Source: Podarcis cretensis (taxonomy: Eukaryota). Taken from it: a DNA stretch of 64,000 bases. Below, piece after piece: positions 1 through 56,127 of the stretch. A program made the position numbers and the translations under genes. The DNA is taken from assembly GCA_951804945.1 (NCBI GenBank), contig OX638165.1, forward strand, positions 40,796,001 to 40,860,000, in the 5' to 3' direction. Every line of letters begins with the position of its first letter. The first letter of the stretch is position 1. Below the pieces are notes generated by a model. The model was given only the letters and a program-made list of their open reading frames with translations. It was not told where the DNA came from and searched no databases.

Positions 1-368
1 GGCTTTCTCCATCTGATCGGAGAGACATTTCAGGGCAGCTTGCTGCATATGAACTGGCATCACTTTCCTAGGAACCACAGGCTTCAGGTGTTCACTTCGT
101 CCAGCAGAGAACATCCCAGCTTGTTTTGCAGGGAGCTTTCAAAGAGAGGAGAGGAGCAAAGCCAGCTTCAGCTGCAGGCTGGCTGCCAAAACCACCTTTT
201 GGGAGGTGGCATAGCAAAACTAGTTGCAGGGTGTTGAAAGTATTATTTGGGAAAGCAGGACACCATGAGGCTGTTTAGTATGAGAATGAGAGAAAATCAC
301 TTAACATTGTTTTTATTGTACTTGTTGTGTGTATATATTTAATGTGTTTATATCTACTGTAAATTTTT

Positions 369-506
369 GGTTACAGATAGGTAGCCGTGTTGGTCTGCCA
401 TAGTCAAAACAAAATAAAAAAATTCCGTCCAGTAGCACCTTAAAGACCAACTAAGTTAGTTCTTGGTATGAGCTTTCGTGTGCATGCACACTTCTTCAGA
501 TACCAA
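369..506 (-). mobile_element. Penelope-like element terminal (pseudo-LTR) fragment in an ARPC3 intron
   Basis: GTAGCCGTGTTGGTCTG...AGCACCTTAAAGACCAAC...GAGCTTTCGTG...CTTCTTCAGATAC resembles reptile Penelope-like repeat ends (from recall) and carries the hammerhead typical of them. Confidence 0.7.
463..506 (-). ncRNA. Minimal type I hammerhead ribozyme motif
   Basis: Minus strand: UUGGUAU-CUGAAGA-A-GUGUG(CAUG)CACAC-GAAA-GCUC^AUACCAA; 7-bp helix I, intact CUGANGA and GAAA core, palindromic AGCU helix III, CUC cleavage triplet. Confidence 0.8.
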
Positions 507-533
507 AATTTTGGGGATCAACAAATAAATGGA

Positions 534-565
<32 letters not shown>

Positions 566-640
566 TCAAAACCGTGTGACTGAATGGGAGCTTTAATATG
601 ATCTGGCCTTGGTTGTGGAGTGTACGTCTTTGTTTTTCAG

Positions 641-735
641 AGATTATGAGGGCCTACTTGCAGCAGCTGAGGCAGGAAACTGGCCTGAGGCTTTGTGAAA
701 AGGTCTTTGATCCCCAGAGTGACAAACCAAGCAAG
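641..735 (+). CDS. ARPC3: ARPC3 penultimate coding exon (Arp2/3 complex subunit 3)
   Basis: tttttcag|AG ATT ATG...AGC AAG|gtcag; encodes [31 protein letters not shown]. Confidence 0.96.
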
Positions 736-887
736 GTCAGATATTGATCTCCTCTGTGACTTGGCTCTCTTGAGCTAGGAGTGGCTCACCTGTGGCGGCA
801 GTGGTGGGGACTCCCTTCAGTCCCAGCCAAGTTAGCCATCCTTGTCTTAGCAGACTCCTGACAGAACAGAAGTGCTTCCTTTCTGTC

Positions 888-1023
888 AGGCCTGGGGAGC
901 CAGTGGCCTTCCAGATGTTGGAGTGCAGAGCCCATCATCCCTGATCACTGGCCACCACACTGGCTCAGGCTGATGGGGGATAAAGTCCAACACCTTCTGA
1001 GTGCCACAGGTTCCCCACCTCTG
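888..1023. mobile_element. Palindromic non-autonomous DNA transposon (MITE), abundant family in this window
   Basis: GGGGAGCC..TGGCC.TCCAGATGTT...CCCATCA / TGATGGG...GCCACAGGTTCCCCA arms; related copies near 1140, 13095, 19310, 29793, 31690, 33645, 34460, 38320, 40913. Confidence 0.65.
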
Positions 1024-1274
1024 CCTTATGTTTTTTGGGTTTCTTAGAAGGACCAGCGGAATTTGGCAAATTATTCATATATTTAAATTAAAATCCTCTG
1101 TTCATATCTATGTATCAGTTGTGTACATCCATGGCAATGCCCTCAAGGTGTTGGATTCCCAACCCCCCTGCCTCAGCAAACATTGTCACTGGTCAGGGAT
1201 GATGACAGTTGCAGTGCAAGGACATCTGGAGAGCCCCAGGCAGGGGCAGGCTGTTTTATGGCATTGTACCTTAA

Positions 1275-1429
1275 GCCGTGCGCTGCTCTGGTTCTCCAGA
1301 AGCGGCTTAGTCATACTGGTCACATGACCCGGAAGCTGTACGCCGGCTCCCTCGGCCAATAAAGCAAGATGAGCGCCGCAACCCCAGAGTCGGCCACGAC
1401 TGGACCTAATGGTCAGGGTCCCTTTACCT
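1275..1429 (+). mobile_element. Sauria SINE, 5'-truncated
   Basis: CACATGACCCGGAAGCTGTACGCCGGCTCCCTCGGCC...GTCCCTTTACCTT tail; flanked by TACCTTAA direct repeats (1267-1274, 1430-1437). Confidence 0.85.
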
Positions 1430-1687
1430 TACCTTAATCCAATTGGATAGGGTGTGGTATATTACCAAATAAATACAGAGAGTCTATCGGTAATCAGAGT
1501 GTGTGGTATGACTATCTTTTTACTTTACAACATCTAGCTAGAGCAGAACCATACTTGATTGCAGAGCCAGGATGGCTGCCAAACAGAAGCTGTGTGTTTA
1601 GTTTTCCCCGAAAGTCTCTTGTGGGAGATCAGAGGGGAACATGGCACACAGCTTCAGTTTTTCGCAGCAGCCTCATGTCTGCCATCA

Positions 1688-2230
1688 AGTCTAGTTAGAC
1701 ATGGGGCTGCCTGTTTGGAAAGCAGCCAGGTTGCTGATCGGTGCAAGGCAGTTTGAGCATATAATGCTAATCCAGGCCCAACTGTACTGGCCAATTAGTT
1801 TATGGGTCCAATTCCAAGTGCTGGTTTTGACCTATAAAGCCTTAAGTGGCTCAGGACCGCAACACCTCAAGGACTGCCTCTCCCCACCTGAACAACTCCG
1901 GACCCTGAGATCAGCGTCTGAGGCCCTTCTTTGTGAGCCTCCTCCATGAGAGGTCTGCAAGGTAGCAGCATGAGAACAGACCTTTTCTGTGGTGGCTCCC
2001 CATTTGTGGGAGACTCGCCTGGCACCTTCTTCACATATCTTTAGGCATCAGGCAAAAACATTCCTCTTATCCCAGGCCTTTGGCTGGTTAAACAATCTAT
2101 GGCCTTTTAAACTATGGAGGGGTTATTATTCTTTATATTATTATGTTAAGTATGCCTGTGTTTTAAAACTAAACTGCCCCGTGATCCTCGGATGAAGGGC
2201 AGTATAGAAATTTATTATTATTATTATTTA
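1688..2230 (+). mobile_element. L2-clade LINE 3' fragment
   Basis: Degenerate ORF2 C-terminus AARLL...LYWPI..WVQFQVLVLTYKAL.GSGPQHLKD; ends in a (TTA)n tail. Confidence 0.75.
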
Positions 2231-2524
2231 TTTCGTAAAGTAATTTACAAAACATTGCAAAGTAAAAGCACGGATAATACTAACCCACAGTATGATGTGA
2301 TGTCACCTCACTGAGATGTTACACCAGCCAATCACATGCTCCTGGTGTGACAATGTCATGTCACATTATGAATTTTGTTAGACGTTAATGAGAGATTGGG
2401 GAGTGTAGGGATGTCTTTTTCACTGCGATGTCTTTGAAGATAAGTTGCAGGGTGGAAACTTGGGTGTATTTCCACTTCTTTGTTCCATTTTCACACCTTG
2501 TCTTCTTTCCCCTTTGTCTCCTAG

Positions 2525-2587
2525 TGGTGGATGTGTTTTGTGAAAAGGCAGTTCATGAACAAGAGCCTGTCAGGACCAGGGCAGTGA
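2525..2587 (+). CDS. ARPC3: ARPC3 last coding exon
   Basis: ctag|TGG...; encodes WWMCFVKRQFMNKSLSGPGQ*, the ARPC3 C-terminus. Confidence 0.96.
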   Translation, partial: WWMCFVKRQFMNKSLSGPGQ

Positions 2588-2781
2588 AGAGCGGCGGGTG
2601 GCTGTCTTGCCAAAGCACTTTGCTGCCAGATGTATAAAATTTTGCCTCTGTTTTAATATATGTTTTCTACCGAGAGAGAGAATAAGCGCTTCTGTGGGGG
2701 AAAGATACCCACCGGTGGATGAAAAGGTGGAGCTAAAATCATGTGCAAACCTTGCTGAGCTGGAGCTTGATGACAATGAGG

Positions 2782-2787
2782 AATAAA
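2782..2787 (+). terminator. ARPC3 polyadenylation signal AATAAA
   Basis: AATAAA ~195 nt after the stop, followed by a GT/T-rich tract. Confidence 0.75.
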
Positions 2788-3437
2788 ATGTGGTTTCTAG
2801 CATCGTTTTGGCTGTTCTTGTGTCTTTGACAAAAATGGGTGAGGAACCTTTAGGCCATGGGTCAACTGTGGCCCTCCAAGCCTTTTTGTCTGGCCCTTAA
2901 GATTCTTCTCAGTGGCCTGCTCTGTATTCTTTATTGCTTTTGCCTGGCTGGAGTATGTCCATCAACTATGATAACACCTCTGGCTTTTATGTGGCTACTT
3001 TACAAAAGTAAGAGCCACGTCCCCTGCTTTGCCCACTTCCGCCCTGCCTGCTGCTTTCATATTGTTCCCTTTAAGGTTCCCTAGGAGGGAATGCGGCTCT
3101 CGGGCTGTTAAAGGTTCTCCACCCCTTTCAGACTGTTCTGGAGTACCCTGGGGATCCTCAGAAGCTTATTGGGGAGGTTCTCAGTTGGAAGATCAGCAGC
3201 GATCAACAAGTTTACTTGAAAGACAGTTGCTTTCCCAGCACTGCGAATCTCCCAGCACAGCTGGGGCACATGCTCAGTTTGGCTGTGAGCTTGGCTGCAA
3301 AGCCCACACACCAGTGAACTGTGTGACCAATAATGCATCCCAGGATCTTTTGGGTTCTATGGGAGACAGGCTGGCCCATCCCAAATGCTTATCTCAGTTG
3401 GCAGATTGGGAGGAGCAGCAAAATCAGGACACCCACC

Positions 3438-3584: not shown

Positions 3585-3785
3585 CACCCACCCCAGTGCA
3601 CACCACCTGTGTGTCAGAAGGAGTGTGGCTGCTTGTCTGTTGCTGTCATACTGCTTGAACTTCCATTGCTGGCAGTTTTGTGGCCAGGCAAAGCCACACA
3701 AATGGCTTGCGACAGCTTCTCCGCAATGCCTGCAGTAAGTTGCAGCAGGGTAAAGAGGATCCCTTATCTTGGGTGCTAAAATGGC

Positions 3786-6245
3786 TTGGCTTGGACCCCC
3801 ATGCTCAATACAGAGCTAACTTATCTCCTCCATTCGGAAGACGTGAAGACCATCTACTCAGCCATTGTATCAGCTAATACCGGGGAAAAGGCCATGGACT
3901 CGTTCAACGAGTTATTAGCAAGACTAAAGACCTTCTTAACAACTGAGATACTTAAATATGTTATAAAGCGGGCAAAGGATCAAGAGAGATGGTTTGATTT
4001 GGAGTGTAGACAAGTAAGGAAACGTGTGAGATCAACCTATCGGATTTACAGACACACCGGAGCACCCTCGCTATTTATGGCTTACATCTATTTAAGACGA
4101 AACTACAAACAGCTATTAAAGGTAAAAAACCAAAAAGCTGAGAGATTGGCCTAGTGTAATTTAGTGAAGGCCTCGAATGAGAAAGACTCAACCTCCTTCT
4201 GGCGTACCATTATGGGCCTCCTGGACCAGGAGCGGATTGGTCCCACATGTACTGTAGAACCCCAGGAGTGGATGAAATATTTTCAAACCCTCTTCTATGA
4301 CGACAAAGCTCAGCACAATGATCCAAGTGCCTACTCCGAGAATTTACCATATTGGCCTCCAGTCTCCATAGAGGAGGTGGGGAAACTAATTGCCCAACTG
4401 AAAAACAACAAAGCGCCGGGCATAGACCACATTCTAGCAGAGCTCATGAAGAACAATATCAGTTGGTGGGCTCCTATAATGGCGTCAATATTTACATACA
4501 TCGATTCAACAGGCATAATATCTGGTTGCTGGACAGAGGCAGTAATTATTCCAATCTATAAAAAGGGTCCTATGGCAGATCCAGCTAGCTATAGACCCAT
4601 TTGCTTCCTTACTATCCCCAGCAAACTGTATGCCAAACACCTCCACATCAAACTAATTGACTGGATGGAAACTGAGGCAGTTCTGGCAGAGGAGCAAGCC
4701 GGCTTCAGACAGGGCAGAACAACAATAGACCATTGCTTCGTATTAGCACACCTCATTGACAAATACGTCAATAAAACACGTGGGATTTTATACGCAGCAT
4801 TTATTGACCTGAAGGCGGCCTTTGACTCGATCTCACAAGTCAAACTTTGGGCTAAACTCAATGCCACCAACACTGACAAAAGATTACTATTCTTGATAAA
4901 AAGCCTATATAAAGACTCCAAGTTAACTGTAAGAACCTCAGTAAATGGGCAACTAATTGGCCCTGTACCAGCCACCAAAGGAGTCAAGCAGGGCTGTATT
5001 TTAGCCCCGGCCTTATTCAACTTATATATAAATGACATGGTCAAATACCTAACATCCCCGGAGTTTCATGCCCCCAAATTAGCTGAAAAATCAATTTCAG
5101 CGCTCCTCTATGCGGACGACGTGGTTCTCTTATCACGAACTAAAGTAGGCCTCAAAAGGCTACTAAGAGAATTCTCAGCCAACTGGTGGTTAATCACCAA
5201 AAAACCAAAGTCATGGTCTTCGCTAGGAGACACAGAGATCACAGATGGGAGATGGACAATCAGCCAATAGAACAGGTCAAAATTTTCAAATACCTCGGAG
5301 TAGTTTTCCAGTCAACGGGGGCCTGAGAGGCCCATCATAAATATGCTAGGGAAAAAGCATCTCAAAGCGCCAAAATACTGTCTCGCTTTTACTTTACGAA
5401 GGGGGGCAGACATATCCCAGCAGCTCTGGAGGTCTTTCAAGCAAAACCCTTGGCGCAATTACTCTACGGGGCCCAAATCTGGACGGGAAATCATTGCCGC
5501 ACACTTGGTCCAGTCTAAATTTTTAAGACAGATTCTAGCCGTTCCACCATGCGCACCAAATGCGGCCCTACGGCTGGAGACTGGACTCCTCTCCGTCAAA
5601 ACCCGGACCTGGTTAAGAACATTCAACTATTGGCTTCGCTTAAATTTAAACCCATCCGGACTACTACCTCTAGTAGCACGAGATGCTCATAGAAGTCGGT
5701 GGTCCAAAGTAGTGCATCAAAAACTACTTACATGTGCCCTCCAAGCACAGCATCTCCTGAAAATGGGTCTCCCCAAGGCAAAAACCGTTATTGACCAGCA
5801 CATGAAGGATATTGAGCAGCAGAATAATCTGGCCTATATTAAGAAATTTAGTGCTTGGTACGCTTATCTGCCCCCCTCCCACTTTGATTTTTGGGCACCT
5901 TATTTGTCTACCTTAACCATTCCAAAACTCAGACGGGCCTTTACACTGGTCAGACTAAATATGTTACCCTCAGCTGTTCTTGAAGGTAGATATCAAAAAA
6001 AATTATTCGAGAACTGGCTCTGCCCCTGTGGAGCTGGCTACGTAGAGACTGTGTCACACGTTCTCCTGTCTTGCTCCCTATATAAAGATCTCAGGGACGA
6101 GACCATCACGCCGCTCCTATCTGCCATCCCGGGCCGCTCTTGTGAAGCCAAATTGTTCTCACTCCTAGCAGACCAGAACAGCTCGACAACAGAGAAGGTT
6201 GCCAAATTTATCGGGAGAGCAATGAGACTAAGAGCTGCTATCTGA
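3786..6245 (+). mobile_element. Decayed 5'-truncated non-LTR retrotransposon ORF2 (RT plus C-terminal Cys/His motif), RTE-X-like
   Basis: RT motifs KAPGID, YRPI, QAGFR, FIDLKAAFDSI, GVKQGCILAPALFNLY, YADD; C-terminal CPCG..ETVSHVLLSC; in-frame stop at 4152-4154 and frameshifts after ~5180; AT-rich 3'UTR probably resumes at 6995-~7250. Clade assignment is from recall. Confidence 0.88.
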
Positions 6246-8520: not shown

Positions 8521-11500
8521 GCAGTTCGCCACATAAAAATACGAGGCAAAATAAAAACACAAAATACATGACAAGAAGAACAAAAAGACAACCACGTTGT
8601 TTCAACCCATTTGCAGTTGCACCCATTCTGTGCCCCCGCCTTCTAGTTTCGCTTTCCCCCTTTCTTTTGTTATAATTGTTAACAATAGATGGTTGGCAAT
8701 GGCATCCATCTGCCTGTGAGACAATGGAAGAGTTTGCCTTTGGGAGTGAAGTCAAGCAATAATAATAATAATAATAATAATAATGCAGCCAAGTGACGTA
8801 GGCTGGGGCTGTGCTGAGAGTGTGAGGTGGGGAACCTGTGGCTCCCCAAATGTCGACTGGGCCCCCAACTCCCACCATTTTGACTTAATGAAGTGAAGAA
8901 AAAGAGAGGAGGGAGCCTTGCAGCATCTTCATCACCGTTCTATTTGCATGCTGCCCTTCCCATAGTTAAAACCACGCTGAAGATTTATGTAACTGCAAAA
9001 ATATAACAGAAAGTAGGCATGAGCAGTAAATTAAAACCATCTTGGTAAGTATGCAGCAAAATTTAAGCAGCCCCCACATAAGTCACAATGAGGTCTTTAA
9101 TGATAAAGATGCACACACACACACATCAGTAACAGCAAAAAAGCACATCAGAAATTAAATTGCAATGTCTGGAGGGCCATAGGCTCTCTGGCCCTGGCCT
9201 GAGGTCACCCAGTGAGCAGGATGCCAAGTGGGGATTTGAACCCAGGTCTCCCTAGCCCTGGAGTCTGTAATGAATGCAATCAGTGCCACATTTTTTGCAG
9301 GAAATACGACCTGCCTGCAGACACAGAGGAGAGTTAAGCTCCATCCTGCTAACCCTGTTTACTTGGGAGTAAGCCCTATTGAATTCCACAGGGTTTACTT
9401 CTAGGTAGACACATTTAGGATCGCACTATTAAAAGAACTCCATAGAATCTTCATGGATGGTAGCTTTTTCATTTTTTCAGTTGTTTGACCCCATTTTCCC
9501 TCTTCCATCTTTCTTTATAGTGTTTATCTATTTCATAAAAATTATACATTACGTCATTGTAAAAAACAAACTCAGAGTGGTTTACGGAAGAAAAAACAGT
9601 AAAATCAAGAAAAATTCACAACCAGACTTTAAAACATACAAAGGTTAAAATACTAAAGCAGATTAAAATTGCCGCAACTTTCTAAGCATCTGGGTAGGCT
9701 TGTCTAAACAGGAATGTTGTTAGCAGGTGCCGCAAAGCGAACAGTGATGGCGCCTTCTTGACTTTAATAGGCAGGGAGATCCAAAATGCTGGTGCTGCCA
9801 CACTAAATGACCAGAGTTAGAAGAACAGGTATTATGTGGCACCTGCAGTAGTGCCAATTCTGGTACCTAATGACTGCTGATAATACTTCACACAGCTAAT
9901 TAAGAGGACTACATTAAATCTGTTCAGGCTGCAGTTTGTTGCACACTTCCCAAACACAGTAGTAAATCCCAGTAAGCATCCATAGGCCTGTGCTGCATGT
10001 ATTTAAACAGTTTTTGGGCATCTTTATATTAACTAAGCACAAGTGAATGTATTCTCAAAAGATTAAGCTCATTTAATCAATTTGTTTAGAATTTAAGGTG
10101 CTACAAGACTTTTTGATTTTTGTTGAAATAACTGACATGCTTGCTACACCTACCCATACTGATTTAAAAGCCTAGAGGGCGCTGGTACTTTGGGTTAAGA
10201 ATTAGACCATCAAAAACATAATTTCCCTACCATGGGTTATTGGTAGTTCCAATACATTTGAAGGCCTGTGGTGTGTGTGAAATGGGAAGCTGTGCACTGC
10301 ATGGTATCTCAATGTACATGTGCTTCACCCTTCTCTCCTCTCACGGGTTTAAGTGCAAGAGACCTTGGAAATGAGAAAACTAGTATATTTAAAAAAGGCA
10401 TCTTCAGCATCAGTGCAAAAGGCACCAACAGGGACAGTTGGCTCAGGGACACACACCTTTCCATTTATCTTCACAAGAATTCTGTAGAGTAGGTTAGGCT
10501 CAGAGAGCAGAGAGCGAGTGGCTGGCTTACCCATGGTCATCCAGTGAACTTCACAGTAGACAGGCAGTCAAGTTGTGTATCCATAGCAGTGACCAGAAGA
10601 GAAATGACCACTCGGGGGAGTGCAAAGACAAGAAACGCCATGGTGCATTTGCAGCATCACAACTGAACGCCTTCATCTGCCCCAACTGCAACAAAACATC
10701 TATCTCTACAGCCACAGCGGGCACTGCAACCTTCCAGCAGCTTGACCTCACCCCCAAAGGCTCAATCCTCCATTGTCTCCCGAGACAGATGGATGCCAAC
10801 CAAGCATGATAGCATTTATGTGATGCTTTATCAAAGCTCTTTATAGTTGTTATCTCAGTAAATCTTACAAAAGCTTTACTGTACAGTAAAGTACAGTGGT
10901 ACTTTGGTTTAAGAACAGCTTAGTTTATGAACAACTTGGATTAAGAATGCTGCAACCCCAGAAGTAGGTGTTTTGGTTTGTGAACTTTGCCTTGGAAGCA
11001 GAACATGTTTCGCTTCCTGTTGAGTGTGTTCCATTTGTAAATTGAGTCCCCCACTGCTATAGGAAAGCATGCCTTGGTTTAAGAACGCTTTGGTTTAAGG
11101 ATGGGACTCTGGAACGGATTAAGTTCGTAAACCAAGGTACCACTGTAGGTCCCTCCCTATTTGTAATACTCCCTATTAGTACTACTAATAAACTGCCCTG
11201 TTACCTTCAGATGAAGGGTGGTATAGAAATTTAATAAATAATAATAGTTGGAAGAGGTATCTTGAAAAAATAGTTTGCTTAAGGCCACTTGATAAGTTCA
11301 TAGTTTCCTGGATGACAGATAAAGTTTAGCAACTTTATAGATTTTGGGGATGCTTAATGCTGTCATTGTAGGATAGCATTGCATGGATAGAAAATGGAAT
11401 GGACAGGTGGTTTCTGAATACAGACATGTTTCTGTTTATTGTTTTCACCTTTCACTAGTTCAGGGATGTTTGCTCCAGGATTTTCTCATGTGGTCAGCTA

Positions 11501-18299: not shown

Positions 18300-21174
18300 A
18301 ATTGCCTTCCTGAACTAACCTGGGACCATAGCCCTTGATGAGTGATGCCCAATAAGACATTCTTCTCCCTGGAATGAAGAATGCCAAGGGGACATTGTGT
18401 GCTGCTGCAAGAACTGAACTGAGGCAAGATCCAAGCAGCCCCTTCTGTCCCTTTTTTGTTTCTGTGTTATGCTCTCGGTGCTCCTTATTTCATGGTGAAG
18501 CCTGAGCAACTTAAGTGCTGGGGAGGCATTCGTGCCAAGCAGCAATTTTGAGTTCTTATTTCTAAAATTAGAAGCTTTCAAATGATATAAAGCATTTCTC
18601 AAACATTTGTTAATGACTAAAACGATGTCAGAATCATGTTGTAAACTAATTATGCTTGATCCCCAGTGGTGCAAAAATGTAGGCTGCTTTTATATCCTTT
18701 TATAAAAGAGGCTTTATTCGCAAAGCCTGTACGGTGTCTTTAGATACACAAACTCCTCCAGAAAGCTGCTGGAATCTCACACAGGGGCAGTAAATTTCTT
18801 TCCAGCCTTTTCCTGGCCTGCCCAGTGTTTTTTGTGCAGGATATTTACATGCACACTCTAAAATAGAAGCATGCTGCTTCAGGCTCCTAACTGATGAGCA
18901 ATTCTATAGCTGATGAACACAAGAAATTGTGGCCTGTGAAATAGTTGGTTATTTTCACATTCTGTGCTAACAAGTGCCACTCCTTTTAAGCCTCTGTAAG
19001 GATATTAGAGAAAGTGAAATGGAGCAGCGTTGAGGAAATTACAGCCAGTGAAAGGTTCTTAAGGTTACTTCTCACTGGGTAATACCAATTAACAATATCT
19101 AAACCACATAATCCTTTCCTGCATACATGACTATTAAAAGCAGCCTTGCCAACATACTGTGCTTCTGGCTTTGATTTGGCTGCATTCAATAACTTCCTCA
19201 AAGCACAGTCCAGCAGCAGCTTCTGTTGGGTGCCCCATCTGCACAAGACCACAGTGCTGTGTTCTCTGTTAAGTAATTATTTTTTTTAATGATGTGACCT
19301 TCCCTTTCACAAGGGTGGCTAGTCTGCAGCCCTCCAGATGTTGCACTCTCAACTCCTATTATCCGTAATTGACTCCATCAGCTTGAAGCAGATGGAAGTT
19401 GCAACATCTGGACAGCCATGGCTCCCCACCCTCCTCTTTTGAATCACAGAAGAATTTAAAAGACCCAACGTGTCTTGATCATCTGCTGAAAACTCTACTA
19501 ATACTACCAAAGTTCAGGATGGAAAAGTAAGTTGCCTTCAAGGAAACATGAAGGTAATGAATTAGTGGTTGTTTATACTGTTATAAGGTTCTTGTGAATA
19601 GAGATACAACATTACCTGTACAGAAACATTCTTGAACACAGGATGCCAGATGCACGTTGATACAAAGAGATACTTTAGTTAAGATAAGGGAATAGTGCTG
19701 GTACAATGGAAATGTATTGCTTTCTCTTTAAACAGAAGAAGCACCACTCTTCCCCCCTTTCCACAAACCGTTTTGGAAATTGGAGGGGAATGTCTAAAAT
19801 CACCCTTTGGTTCACACAGTTGGTTCATGATTCCAGGCCCAGTAGATAAATGAAAGGGAACAATGGCTTGTCAAAATCAGTTTGTGGCTAAGATGAGATT
19901 TGAATTGGGGCATTTCATGTTTGTGATGCCACTCCAGCTCTTGTAATCACCCACCACCAGTAAAATCAGGCACACAATTATTTGCTAGACAAGCTGCTGA
20001 TTTTCATTGTGTGGGCATTCTTATTTTCTGGGGGGAAACGATCTTAATTGGAGCATGTAAATTAGTTGTCCATAGTTATTTATATAGTACCATTACATTA
20101 CAATGGTTCATAAAACTCATAAACAAGGAAGAAAACACTCTAGTCCTTGTCCTGTGATTTAAAAAATTATTTCACTTATGAACTACTTCCTATGAGGCAT
20201 CCCACAGTAAAACATTTTTTTAAAAAAACAGTTGCACATGTAAAAGCAGTTGTTGTATATATGAAATGAAAACAGTTTAAAACAAGAATAGCACATAGTT
20301 CAAATCAATTCAGATCCAATGCTGATAAAGAGCTCCAGCCAGACATTTTGCTGGTTGAAATTTTATTAGTGGTGTAATGAATATACATGCAAATACAGTA
20401 AGTTCTGTGCCACCCTTTACACACCCTCTCATAATGTCAGTTTTTATAAACGGAAAGGAGAATGAGGAAGACGGATCATCACATCCTTTTGGAAGAAGAC
20501 TTAAGAAAAATGGTACATAAAAGGGACTGCTGAGAGGTCCTGGGGAGAGTGGAATTCAGCTAGTGGGACTGCTGCTAGTGAAGAATGACGAGGCCAGGGT
20601 TCCTGCTCCCGTCATAGTTGTGTGGAAGAGGAAATATGCATCCAGCTGCCTTGTACTCTGGCCTCTTTCAGCTCACCTGCAGGAGACCATACAAAAAGGA
20701 GTGTGCCTATGCCCTGGACTGTGGAGACCCAAAAGACACTTAGACCAAGGACAGGGAACCTTTTTGGATGAGCAGCCCACCCCTGCAGACCTATTTTTGA
20801 TGGTTGGGACAACCCACCTGTCTTTGGCCTGACTTAGGGACACTAGATGATTGTCTGGCAGATTAAGCCCACTCACATGTAAGAAGGCCTTTGAGCACTG
20901 ATCTTTAAGTGCCTTGACAGCCAGCCTGAGAACCACACTGCACAGTCATAGGTGTCAGGCCGCCAGAGCTGCTGGCTGTGCAACAGAGTTCCCACTGCAG
21001 GTGTTTGACGAGGAGAAGAACAAGACATTAGCCACAATTTATCTGTATCCCATAGTTTCATGAGAACTTCTGTTGATTGATGTGTTTTCCTTCAAACCAG
21101 CCTCCCTCTGGTTTGAAAACACAAGCTGTAGTTAAGCTGGCGTGTGCATTTTATGCAACCACTGTACAGTGCAA

Positions 21175-26056: not shown

Positions 26057-26702
26057 CAACAACAACAATCTTTATTACGGTCCAGAGACCCAACAAAACA
26101 TTACAAATCAATACACAGTTCATACAGCCTACCTCCAGGTTAATTAAGGATTTTGTTTAGAATATAGGGCTCATTTGTTCTTGCAACCACCGATAAAAAC
26201 TTTGCCACTGCCAACGTTCTAGCTTTTGTCCGGTCTTCCAGTAGGAACCTGACATAGTGAGCCTCTGATTTTCCTGTGAAAGGCAGCAGCAAGGGTAGTA
26301 TCAGTTCAGCCCTGGCCTGCTCATACTTCACACAATGCAACAAAATATGATTTATGGAATTGATGTCTTGAGCACACGAGCAAAGTCTGTCCTGGTAGGG
26401 AACTCCTCTCAACCTACCATCCAGCACTGCAGGGGGGAAGACATTTAGTCTGGCTTTAGTGAAAAGCCTTCGATAGTTAGGCACTGTCAGGTTTTTGATG
26501 TAAGATGTTAACTCAAAGACATACCCATATTGAACTCCTGCTGCCAGCGGACTACAGACTGTGTGTGACCGAGATCGCAAGTCACTGTGTGCATTGTCCC
26601 ATAATCTTTGCTTTAAAACCTTTTGGGCACCTTCATAACCCAGGTAATACAGTTGGGGGGGGGGGAGACAGACCAATAGAGGTGTCTTTTTTAGCCATGG
26701 TT
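26057..26702 (-). mobile_element. 5'-truncated RTE-X-like LINE nested in a CR1 fragment
   Basis: ORF with RRLFTKARLN..DGR..RLCSC..HILLHC, homologous to the 5343-6245 ORF; AATAAA+(TTG)n tail; 13-bp TSD TGGAAAAAGGCAA. Confidence 0.85.
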
Positions 26703-26900
26703 TGGAAAAAGGCAAATTCCATGCCAGGGATCATTAGGAAAGGGATGAAAAATGCATCTGCCAATGTTGCAGTGCCAAGACTAATGCAATCACACTTGAA
26801 ATACTATGTACAGTTCTGATCGCTGCACCTTAAAGAGGATATTTCAGAACTGGGAAAGGTAGAAAGGGGTCTCTAAAATGGCTGAAGGTCTGAAGCAAAT
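26703..26900 (+). mobile_element. CR1 LINE ORF2 fragment (left part at ~26020-26056)
   Basis: KKANSMPGII.KG...HLKYYVQF..LHLKEDI.ELGKV, a CR1 ORF2 C-terminal pattern. Confidence 0.75.
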
Positions 26901-29792
26901 CTCCAATGGCGAAACAGGGTGGAGATAAAATCACTAGGAAGCTGATTGTAAGGATTAGACAATATATGTGTGAATTGCTTTGAACAATCTGGTATGCCTT
27001 ATATATTCTACGTGGGGGGTATTGGTTTTGTTTGTTATTGTGTTATGTTTATTTGTGTTTAATATTCTAAACTGCCCTGTGATCCTTGGGTGAAGAATGG
27101 TATAGAAATTTAATAAATAAGCATAATACAACTTAACGTGGGTTGAACAAGGTAACTACTAGGTGGATTTGTAGCTGGTTGACTGACTGAACCCAAAGAG
27201 TGCCTGTCTTTATCCTGCTCTTCCCCTCCTTGCAATGCTGTGTCTTTCCTCCCTGCTGTCCAGAGCCTTGAGCTGTGGGGCCACCAGCTGATCCATGAGG
27301 GGCATCTTCACTTGCACACCACCCAGAGGAGGACTGTGGGTCAGTGACTGGCCAAAGCCAGCCCTCTTGGTGGGGAGGGGGATGCGCTTCCTTTGAACAG
27401 GAATCAAAGTGGGGAGGGGCTGTGGCTTAATGGAGAGTGGACGAGAGGGAGCTGGATGTGCCAAGGGAAGGGAAGCCAGGAAACAAGACCATCTCTCTCT
27501 CAGGCCTGCTCTTCACGGACCTGGTGGTGCTTCTGGAATGCCTCGGGGAGGGGGCACAGAGCTCCTCCTTCAGCCCCATCCTCCCTCTGAATGAGGTCCT
27601 CCTCTGTCCCACGGCCACAGATAAGAAGGGAAGCCACACAACCATGTTCCTCCTCGTTTAAAGGTGCAAAGCTGCACAGGCCAGCCCTGCTGTGTGGATG
27701 TTTCTTCCATCTTGTCTCTGTTCTCTGCATTGCTGTACCTGGGCCCACACTCCTGGTGTGTGTGTGTATAATTCTTAACTACCTCCCCTTCACTCACAGG
27801 TCCCAGGCATGGGCAGAGAAAGGGGGGTGCGGGGGGTGCGGTCTGCTCCAGGTGCCATCCTGGGCGGGGACATCGCCCCCCCCCATGCTCACTGCGCCCC
27901 CCATACGCTCGCTGCGGGCAGTGGGAGGCTAGCAGCATCCCCAACACTCACCACACGGGCGGGAGGCAGCTAGGGAGCTCGCTGTGTGGGCTGCTAGCCC
28001 TGTCCCCAGTCCACTCCGGTTGCTGGAGCAGGTAGCTCTGCCTCTGCTCCCAGGTTGGGTTACAGCAATGCAATTACTTTAAAACAACCTACTAGCACAG
28101 AAATAGGATGCATAGTTTATGAAACACCTCAAAGACACACACTCAAATTTCTTTCGCATTTCTTCCTCTTTTTGTGACATTTATATGATGCTTTTGGGTG
28201 GTCTTTGGCTAATGGGTTGGGCAATTTCTAAAGCCGTTAAAGTATGTTACACACCCGCAGCGGTGGCAGGGACTCTATTGCAGCAGAAAAAAATAGTATC
28301 TGCCTTGCTTTGACTGCTTCCTGCCTCCATCAATTCTTCTCTGACTAATAAGAGGGGTAGAAAGCTATGCATGGTGTGAGTTTTCCTCCAATTTGCATAA
28401 TACTAGAATCCAGGGTCACAGAGTTCTACAGTGTTAACAACAGATCCATTTAAAGCACCCAACAAGGTGGATGTACAGGTTACAGAGGCAATTATTAAAA
28501 CTAACAAAGCAAGTCTTGGTCAAACAGTTAAAATACAGCTGCCAAAAAAAAAAAAAAGAATTCCTTGATTCATGTGGGTACAAATAATACTGCCACACAC
28601 AGCCTGCAACGCACAGCAAGGGACCATGAGACCCTGGGCAGGGAGCTGAAGGGACTTGGGCCACAGGTGGTTTTTTCACCACTTCTTCCTGTTGAAGGTC
28701 GTAGCCCAGGAAGACAGAGGAAAATACTCTGATGTCTTTAAATCATGGAGATTTGAGTGGGTAGAACTCATACAATTATTTTGTGTGAGCTCTACCATGA
28801 AGCCAGTGGCTGGTGCCCATTGGACTGGTAGGGCAGAATGTAGGGATCCCTACATCCCTGATGAGGGCAACACTGAGGAGGAAGTTGACAAGGAGTGACA
28901 TCCCCCTGGAGCAAATATAAGAAAGGAGGCAGGCAGAAGATTGGTGGGGCATTGCCCCCATTCACCCTGCGGGGCCAGACTCCACTACACAAAGCACTTT
29001 ACAGGTCAAGTACTCTCACTTGGGAAGATGATTATTTCACCACACAGAAAACTTCCTGTGCTTTAAATTTTTTAACGTCTTGTGTATGAACAGTTGTACA
29101 CCCTTTAGAAAATTAAATAAATATAAATAAATCAGTTGGGACACAAGATGGTTTGTCTCACTTTTTTTATACAAACAATGGAAAACATTTTTTGTTTTGT
29201 TTTGAAAAAGGTGATTATATAGAGGTTGTCTTCTAACACACACTCTCTACCCCAGTCATGCCACACTCCAAGAGGAACGCTATGTAGTTCTAAGAGGAAG
29301 AAGTGTTGCCTTGGCATTGCTAGGAAATCGTGCGCAAATAATGCCACAAACTTAAAAGTGTGAAGAGCTTGGAAGGAAATCTCACTGGAACCGATGTCAC
29401 AGACCCAAAGCAGCAGCACCCAAGGGATTGGGCCCGTGTTAAGTGGCATTCTCTTTCCTTTGAATAACGTGTGCCCAGGCCATCTCACAAATGGGTTTTG
29501 AAATCTTCTTCAACTTCAGAGGGCATTTTCTGTGCAACGTTCCGTTCTAACAAGCCCAATTCAAAAGCTTCCTTCTTTGGTTCTTTGGATCCCAGACAGT
29601 GCAATGTGCTTTTATTCCTGAGAGCCAGCCAATCCACACATTACATAGAATGAAAAGCAGAATCCTGGACTCTCCCACCTGAGCCTGTGGTTGGGATTTC
29701 ATAGCTCTGAATATTCTCCCATGTAAGAAAAGCTCCCTAAAATGGGAACTGGGCTCGACTTAAAAAGAAAAGAAAAGCACTCTCTCAAAGGG

Positions 29793-29928
29793 CAGTGATG
29801 GCCAAACTTGGCCCTCCAGCTGTTTTGGGGCTACAACTCCCATCATCCCTAGCTAACAGGACCAGTGGTCAGGGATGATGAGAATTGTAGTCCCAAAGCA
29901 GCTGGAGGGCCAAGTTTGGCCATCACTG
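29793..29928. mobile_element. Well-preserved palindromic hAT-like MITE
   Basis: 30-bp perfect TIR CAGTGATGGCCAAACTTGGCCCTCCAGCTG. Confidence 0.88.
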
Positions 29929-30409
29929 TCCTAGAGGATAGAGCTCTCAGTGGCTCCCAGCCACAACGGCTACATGCCACCTACAGGATCAGAGGCAGAC
30001 TGGCTCTGAAGGCTGGGAATCTCAGGTGGGGAGAGTCCTGCTCCACTCAGGCCCTGCTGGCCCGTTTCCCACTGTGGAACCTGGTTGGCCACTGAGAGAA
30101 CAGGCTGGTGGGATGGATGGGTTACTGGCCTGATCCAACAGGCTGGTCTCTCTCTTTCTGAGGTGCTAGTTCAGTATATAAAAGGAGCAGACATTTTTTG
30201 CTTTAGTATGCAGGGAACATTAAAAATGCACACTCTCCAATAGTTTGAAGCAGTGAAGTCCAGAATCCCACCACCTTACTCTGCATCATGTGCAGGACAG
30301 GCTCTCAGTAAACGTGTTTAGAATTAGCTTACAAGGAAGCTTGCGTGTTCCTAAGCCAGGACTAAACGCATATCCAAACAAACACACAAACTATGTATCA
30401 TAGAATAAG

Positions 30410-31261: not shown

Positions 31262-56127
<24,866 letters not shown>

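Follow-up and report, generated by a model that had tools for sequence, protein, structure and literature searches.

A minimal hammerhead ribozyme motif in an abundant, probably Penelope-derived repeat lying antisense within an ARPC3 intron of Podarcis cretensis

Results

The ARPC3 locus and its neighbourhood

The beginning of the window (the whole stretch of Podarcis cretensis DNA analysed, 64,000 nucleotides) carries the penultimate and the last coding exon of ARPC3, both flanked by AG/GT splice signals (Table 1). The P21-Arc match of the last exon (E 2e-4), taken alone, is below the curated cut-off; in the RNA run X23, 191 reads splice in at 639 from an upstream exon, and 172 lead from 735 into the last exon. 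The depth of the ARPC3 exons in this run lies wholly in one mate direction (115-280 vs 0), and the library is therefore stranded. Since the exons are on the plus strand, the minus-strand hammerhead motif described below sits antisense in an ARPC3 intron, where the original prediction had placed it. The insertion that carries it is ~135 nt away from the acceptor AG (639-640) of the penultimate exon. No reads of either orientation cover its intronic flanks in the RNA runs X23 and X21, which come from a second organism (organism F) that apparently lacks the insertion.

At 681, the third base of a codon in the ARPC3 exon, the window has T, and all or nearly all depth of the four mapped runs has C; the difference is synonymous and reflects either an allele or an assembly error. 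Downstream of ARPC3 lies a broken LINE-type element (3780-6245, plus strand; RVT_1 at 4155-5270, E 6e-30), and a similar-looking LINE C-terminal fragment is found at 26140-26730 (minus strand); no tie of either to the hammerhead repeat was seen. An open reading frame starting at ~8070 (plus strand) is taken by us to be ANAPC7, the 41 amino acids tested being without a Pfam match, and a P-type ATPase exon at 50418-50969 (minus strand; Pfam E1-E2_ATPase) presumably belongs to ATP2A2. Short inverted-arm elements, MITE- or SINE-like repeats, are present at 29776-29945, 40918-41045 and 51718-51937.

Table 1. Features of the ARPC3 intron and adjacent exons (window coordinates).
Feature	Position	Strand	Basis and remarks
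Left copy of likely 10-bp target-site duplication	361..370	+	9/10 identical to 505-514
Short dispersed repeat	371..503	-	Read depth jumps at 370 and 503, with loose ends at both (X1, X14); hammerhead at 5' end
Likely optional Penelope 'tail'	371..407	-	Copies end at 370 or 406/407, 37 nt apart
Repeat-encoded minimal type I hammerhead	466..503	-	Core, helices and fold; boundary 503 from read depth
Hammerhead helix I, repeat-encoded	503-500 with 469-466	-	4 bp (GUAU/AUAC)
Right copy of likely target-site duplication	505..514	+	Register 506-515 scores equal
(ATT)10 microsatellite	534..563	+	Adjoins the insertion
ARPC3 penultimate coding exon	641..735	+	Pfam P21-Arc, E 6.9e-7 (643-735); spliced reads, loose ends at 639 and 735
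ARPC3 last coding exon	2525..2587	+	Pfam P21-Arc, E 2e-4 (2525-2584); reads joined from 735

The hammerhead motif

The minus-strand letters from 506 to 463 read as the original prediction gave them and contain the conserved core CUGANGA / GAAA / UH in type I topology. The core CUGAAGA extends, in minus-strand numbering, from C3=499 through U4, G5, A6, A7 and G8 to A9=493. An extra A (492) separates A9 from G10.1=491, which pairs with C11.1 at 478, and the 5 bp of helix II with their CAUG loop are followed by GAAA (G12=477, A13, A14, A15.1=474), G15.2, C16.2, U16.1=471 and C17=470. The predicted cut lies after C17, between 470 and 469, and this independent numbering arrives at the very position proposed originally. 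The other structural claims hold as well: a minus-strand type I hammerhead with complete core, a helix II arm that is a perfect 14-nt palindrome (478-491, its loop CAUG being self-complementary), and a helix III reduced to the palindrome AGCU (474-471), which replaces a monomeric helix III and has no loop 3. The 7 bp claimed for helix I stand only in part: the pairing is present in this copy, where it is extendable to 9 bp including one G-U, but only 4 bp derive from the repeat, the rest belonging to junction and flank. We regard only these four pairs as family sequence because copies that run past 503 differ from the window there. Positions 504-508 are junction and target site, and C504 together with 505-514 supplies the extra pairs; with the repeat boundary at 503, a helix I of 7-9 bp was rejected as a trait of the family.

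Helices I and II are both present in the minimum free energy structure (-12.7 kcal/mol, z -2.66), and 4 of 200 shuffled sequences were as stable. The 9-bp helix I is predicted to stabilise the fold in contexts of 44-201 nt, and in a 401-nt context the predicted hammerhead pair probabilities fall to ~0.2. An intermolecular helix III duplex formed via AGCU is predicted to contribute only -2.5 kcal/mol.

The descriptor search suggested along with the original prediction, performed with a strict minimal-hammerhead model, found this motif as the single match in the 64-kb window and none in 150 simulated windows (Markov-1, 64 kb, dinucleotide make-up of the window). A relaxed core scan of the 64 kb revealed no second intact copy; its match at 18910 (plus strand), with 5 bp in helix I, probably arose by chance and was rejected as a second hammerhead for its helix II of just 3 bp. 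Rfam, searched over positions 1-3000 at E<=10, returned no hammerhead and five weak, unrelated matches.

A dispersed and very abundant repeat

Parts of the region 300-620 are contained in 20 of 24 public run entries from 10 studies, representing seven organisms and one small metagenome share; a share of 0.08 in the coral metatranscriptome X20 was not counted as evidence of the repeat. The read analysis covers four of the 24 runs, mapped on 100-800: the DNA runs X1 and X14 and the RNA runs X23 and X21.

The two DNA runs, from two organisms, show sharp depth edges at 370-503. Element depth amounts to ~7.6 million against 77 in the flank in X1 (ratio ~98,000; 18,846 contigs) and to ~1.7 million against 14.7 in X14 (ratio ~115,000; 7,486 contigs), values that are summed contig depths and not copy numbers, and that point, in our view, to at least tens of thousands of copies. 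This agrees with the high-copy family originally suspected (depth ~100,000 times that of the flank); the non-autonomous status proposed for it is doubtful, as many copies continue past 503 and may instead be 5'-truncated Penelope ends. Such copies share a sequence unlike that of the window and are seen in at least 94 contigs of X1 and at least 67 of X14, among the ends listed.

The loose ends of family copies, among those listed, fall at 370, 406/407 and 503. In X1 at least 93 contigs end at 370, at least 42 at 406 and at least 42 at 407; in X14 at least 81 end at 370 and at least 39 at 407. Both runs accordingly display the alternative ends of an optional 3' tail, which in Penelope measures 30-40 bp (PMC11167929, PMC8557442), with the reservation that 406/407 is near variable sites and may owe something to alignment. 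The joints listed include likely head-to-tail ones in X1 (501 to 370 and 503 to 370) and also opposite-strand ones, so that tandem and inverted arrangements both appear to occur, at low depth: tandem joints reach ~1,000 vs ~7 million for the family. Through head-to-tail joints some family copies could dimerise.

Beyond ARPC3, at ~10060-10160, we found a diverged fragment that resembles the 3' part of the repeat (371-457) in opposite orientation and has no hammerhead; it is probably an older relative. Flanked family copies were sought by pattern in metagenomic contigs and in viral contigs, without a match in either. Judged by titles and abstract openings, none of the papers found on Penelope in lacertids or Podarcis describes this repeat, which may already bear a name in Repbase or Dfam.

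Among the 30 element rows listed, two DNA changes of >=5% fall inside the hammerhead. C17 is replaced by U in 14% and 10% of the family DNA depth of the two DNA runs, and G12, a CpG site, by A in 18% and 13%. The published consensus of minimal hammerheads allows H at position 17 (PMC4209133), and G12 is the general base of the hammerhead (PMC6155905); its loss at a CpG looks like neutral decay after insertion.

The insertion site

The repeat is bordered by the likely 10-bp target-site duplication of Table 1, whose 9/10 match was reached in 4 of 300 pairs of random sites. A contig of X14 (organism F) joins 100-361 to 574-799 via 48 letters, against 212 in the window. The 164 missing letters would be accounted for by the element and a single duplication (144 together), along with a shortened ATT run, and the flanks of the contig show 16 differences in ~490 letters (~97% identical). 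Going by this one contig of one other organism, whose middle 48 letters are unseen, the site is likely empty in organism F and the insertion in the window likely recent. In X1 a contig coming from the left flank reaches 23 letters into the element, the threshold for bridging being 31 letters. Three junction bases match what fold-back copying at helix I would yield and may have arisen in that way.

Family RNA

RNA of the family is present on both strands in organism F, which is not the organism of the window. The depth of hammerhead-sense RNA is flat, at 391-416 over positions 462-477, without a step at the cut, and among the ends listed for the two RNA runs of organism F there is no pile-up at 470/469; standard fragmented RNA libraries would miss low-level cleavage.

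Among the rows listed, 13 sites are changed in <1% of X14 DNA yet in >=5% of RNA. Ten of the 13 are A>G or T>C in X23, and 10/10 lean to the strand of A-to-I editing (binomial p 0.001, for sites that are not independent, a few expressed loci being dominant, and with DNA from another animal); one further T>C site occurs in X21 only, and the remaining two show changes of a different kind. The A>G / T>C changes with strand preference fall at 441-474 and include A15.1 (474), changed in 14.6% of the hammerhead-sense reads of X23. The family RNA thus likely carries an A-to-I editing signature. We do not regard this signal as new, since more than 40,000 hyper-edited sites were published for lizard Penelope by Porath et al. 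2017 (PMC5625713).

Discussion

By its structure, the minus-strand motif at 466-503 is a genuine hammerhead of the class of minimal hammerheads (min-HHR) that Cervera & De la Pena 2014 described from metazoan Penelope-like elements (PMC4209133). It has in common with them the type I topology, CUGAAGA with an extra nucleotide between 9 and 10.1 (here A), the G10.1-C11.1 pair, GAAA-G-C-U-H without loop 3 and hence a palindromic helix III (15.2-16.2), and a short helix I, of 4 bp here within a range of 4-5 bp. These motifs are mostly single and dispersed, and reptiles (turtle, snakes) are already listed among their carriers (PMC4209133). The closest comparison is the motif of the painted turtle Chrysemys picta bellii (Fig. 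S3, PMC4209133), to which the window motif is identical at 29 of 34 positions, counted by eye with loop II excluded. Four of the five differences make up a compensatory pair in helix I and another in helix II, a covariation seen in this one pairwise comparison by eye with the turtle motif only; the fifth is position 17. The Penelope-type assignment of the original prediction is supported by this match and by the published consensus. In Fig. S3 the turtle motif is not marked as Penelope-ORF-linked. The window motif is unlike it in the palindromic loop II CAUG and in C17 rather than U17, and its family is not among the entries of that figure that were compared.

A lizard system for comparison is Poseidon_Ac (PAc) of Anolis carolinensis, studied by Frangieh et al. 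2024 (PMC11167929). PAc and the window family share a Penelope-type hammerhead, two 3' end points (a 30-40 bp tail) and an AT-rich target, and in the account of PAc drawn upon here, as in our data, no RNA-seq read ends fall at the cut site. The ORF of PAc starts at stem II, whereas no ORF starts there in the window; the likeness to PAc is one of description.

Other short, non-coding hammerhead repeats tied to Penelope terminal repeats are the non-LTR retrozymes of animals (Cervera & De la Pena 2020, PMC7229834; Li et al. 2026, bioRxiv 10.64898/2026.07.22.740005), which also occur as dispersed monomers, many of them intronic like the window copy. These sources take a tandem array of at least two consecutive hammerhead units as the mark of a retrozyme, with canonical hammerheads in PMC7229834, whereas the locus studied here holds a single monomer whose motif is minimal. 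Elsewhere in the family there may be loci that count as tandem and retrozyme-like. The conserved intronic hammerheads of amniotes, in RECK, CTCL and DTNB introns (PMC6155905), are likewise of type I and inside amniote introns. They form a small set, each kept over large clades, whereas the window motif is one of many thousands; it is also antisense, minimal and, given the apparent empty site in organism F, not conserved at the orthologous position of a close relative.

In our judgement it is very probable that the locus holds an intact min-HHR at the 5' end of an abundant 133-bp repeat, which likely represents a 5'-truncated Penelope terminal repeat (pLTR), likely inserted recently and antisense into the ARPC3 intron, and which is probably inert. 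A Penelope parentage is suggested by the layout, the tail and the tandem and inverted joints; neither a Penelope reverse transcriptase nor a GIY-YIG ORF lies beside the copy in the window. The reverse transcriptase-endonuclease of the parent element would nick an AT-rich site, copying would begin at the tail end (371) and stop just past helix I (503), and the insertion would come to be flanked by a duplication of 10 bp. Within the parent element, a tandem pair of motifs would associate through AGCU to form helix III, and cleavage would follow after C17, probably aided by the element's protein. Dimer cleavage was reportedly observed by Lunse et al., as a citing review (PMC6765202) has it. For Penelope min-HHR, monomers remained uncut and dimers or trimers cut weakly (PMC4209133), only one of nine Xenopus dimers was cut (bioRxiv 10.64898/2026.07.22.740005), and the PAc motif cut only in the presence of the element's protein, its cutting being dispensable for insertion in vitro (PMC11167929). 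A lone copy would have no partner in cis for an intermolecular helix III, and the ARPC3 pre-mRNA would contain its complement only, so that no cutting is expected; the lone antisense copy is most likely silent. The visible effect of the family is as double-stranded RNA, likely A-to-I edited.

A different origin of the repeat is conceivable, and we think it possible but clearly less probable: it might constitute a discrete non-autonomous family of ~135-150 nt, SINE- or retrozyme-like, with source copies of its own, which relies on Penelope enzyme in trans and needs its ribozyme. The sharply bounded depth, restricted to 370-503 in both organisms, and the likely head-to-tail joints in X1 point in this direction, and non-autonomous pLTR derivatives have been proposed for vertebrates, with a mean reptile consensus of 176 bp (bioRxiv 10.64898/2026.07.22.740005). 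However, the numerous contigs with shared sequence beyond 503 (at least 94 in X1 and at least 67 in X14) argue against a discrete unit, tandem joints are scarce relative to the family, and G12 decays at a CpG; moreover, an autonomous element whose copies are strongly 5'-truncated would give the same picture. If the non-autonomous origin were true, the label of the family would change and the fate of this copy would not.

Far more speculative is a lizard mini-retroelement whose palindromic helix II pairs transcripts in trans, so that assembled copies would cut, sense-oriented intronic copies would be purged and ADAR editing of A15.1 (~15%) would brake the ribozyme; we rate this model as improbable. 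The swapped dimer via the palindrome is predicted to form a 14-bp duplex of -25.2 kcal/mol vs -4.1 kcal/mol for the hairpin. This dimer would still be without helix III, and the palindrome was rejected as a special route to dimers; we retain it for the trans-pairing model only, because one in 16 tetraloops is self-complementary and the dimer has no helix III. Our literature search found no paper joining Penelope ribozyme, antisense orientation and intronic strand bias.

That the copy has been domesticated, cutting ARPC3 antisense transcripts or regulating ARPC3 in some other manner, appears more improbable still. Its core is intact, the junction lengthens helix I to 9 bp with a stabler fold, and amniotes do possess conserved intronic hammerheads (PMC6155905). 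Against these points, a young copy should have its core intact anyway, the site is apparently empty in an organism ~97% identical in the flanks, a monomeric helix III is missing, pair probabilities drop to ~0.2 in the 401-nt context, and neither strand of the intronic flanks has reads in X23 or X21 (organism F only). A chance pattern in a hairpin-bearing repeat, for which the Rfam search without a hammerhead match might be cited, is refuted by the lack of strict matches in 150 simulated windows, by the agreement with the published consensus and by the compensatory pairs relative to the turtle motif, and its probability is negligible.

Conclusions

The motif belongs to a kind already published in 2014, to which our preferred reading, a young and probably inert Penelope-derived insertion, adds one more reptile family. 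Li et al. 2026 list reptile families in their supplements, and the window family may be among them. The finding would acquire greater significance only if trans cleavage, or control by editing, proved true. Being young, near-consensus and very abundant, and with an orthologous site that is likely empty, the family nevertheless lends itself to two questions: whether cleavage by Penelope hammerheads takes place in vivo, and whether intronic copies in sense orientation are selected against by their hosts.
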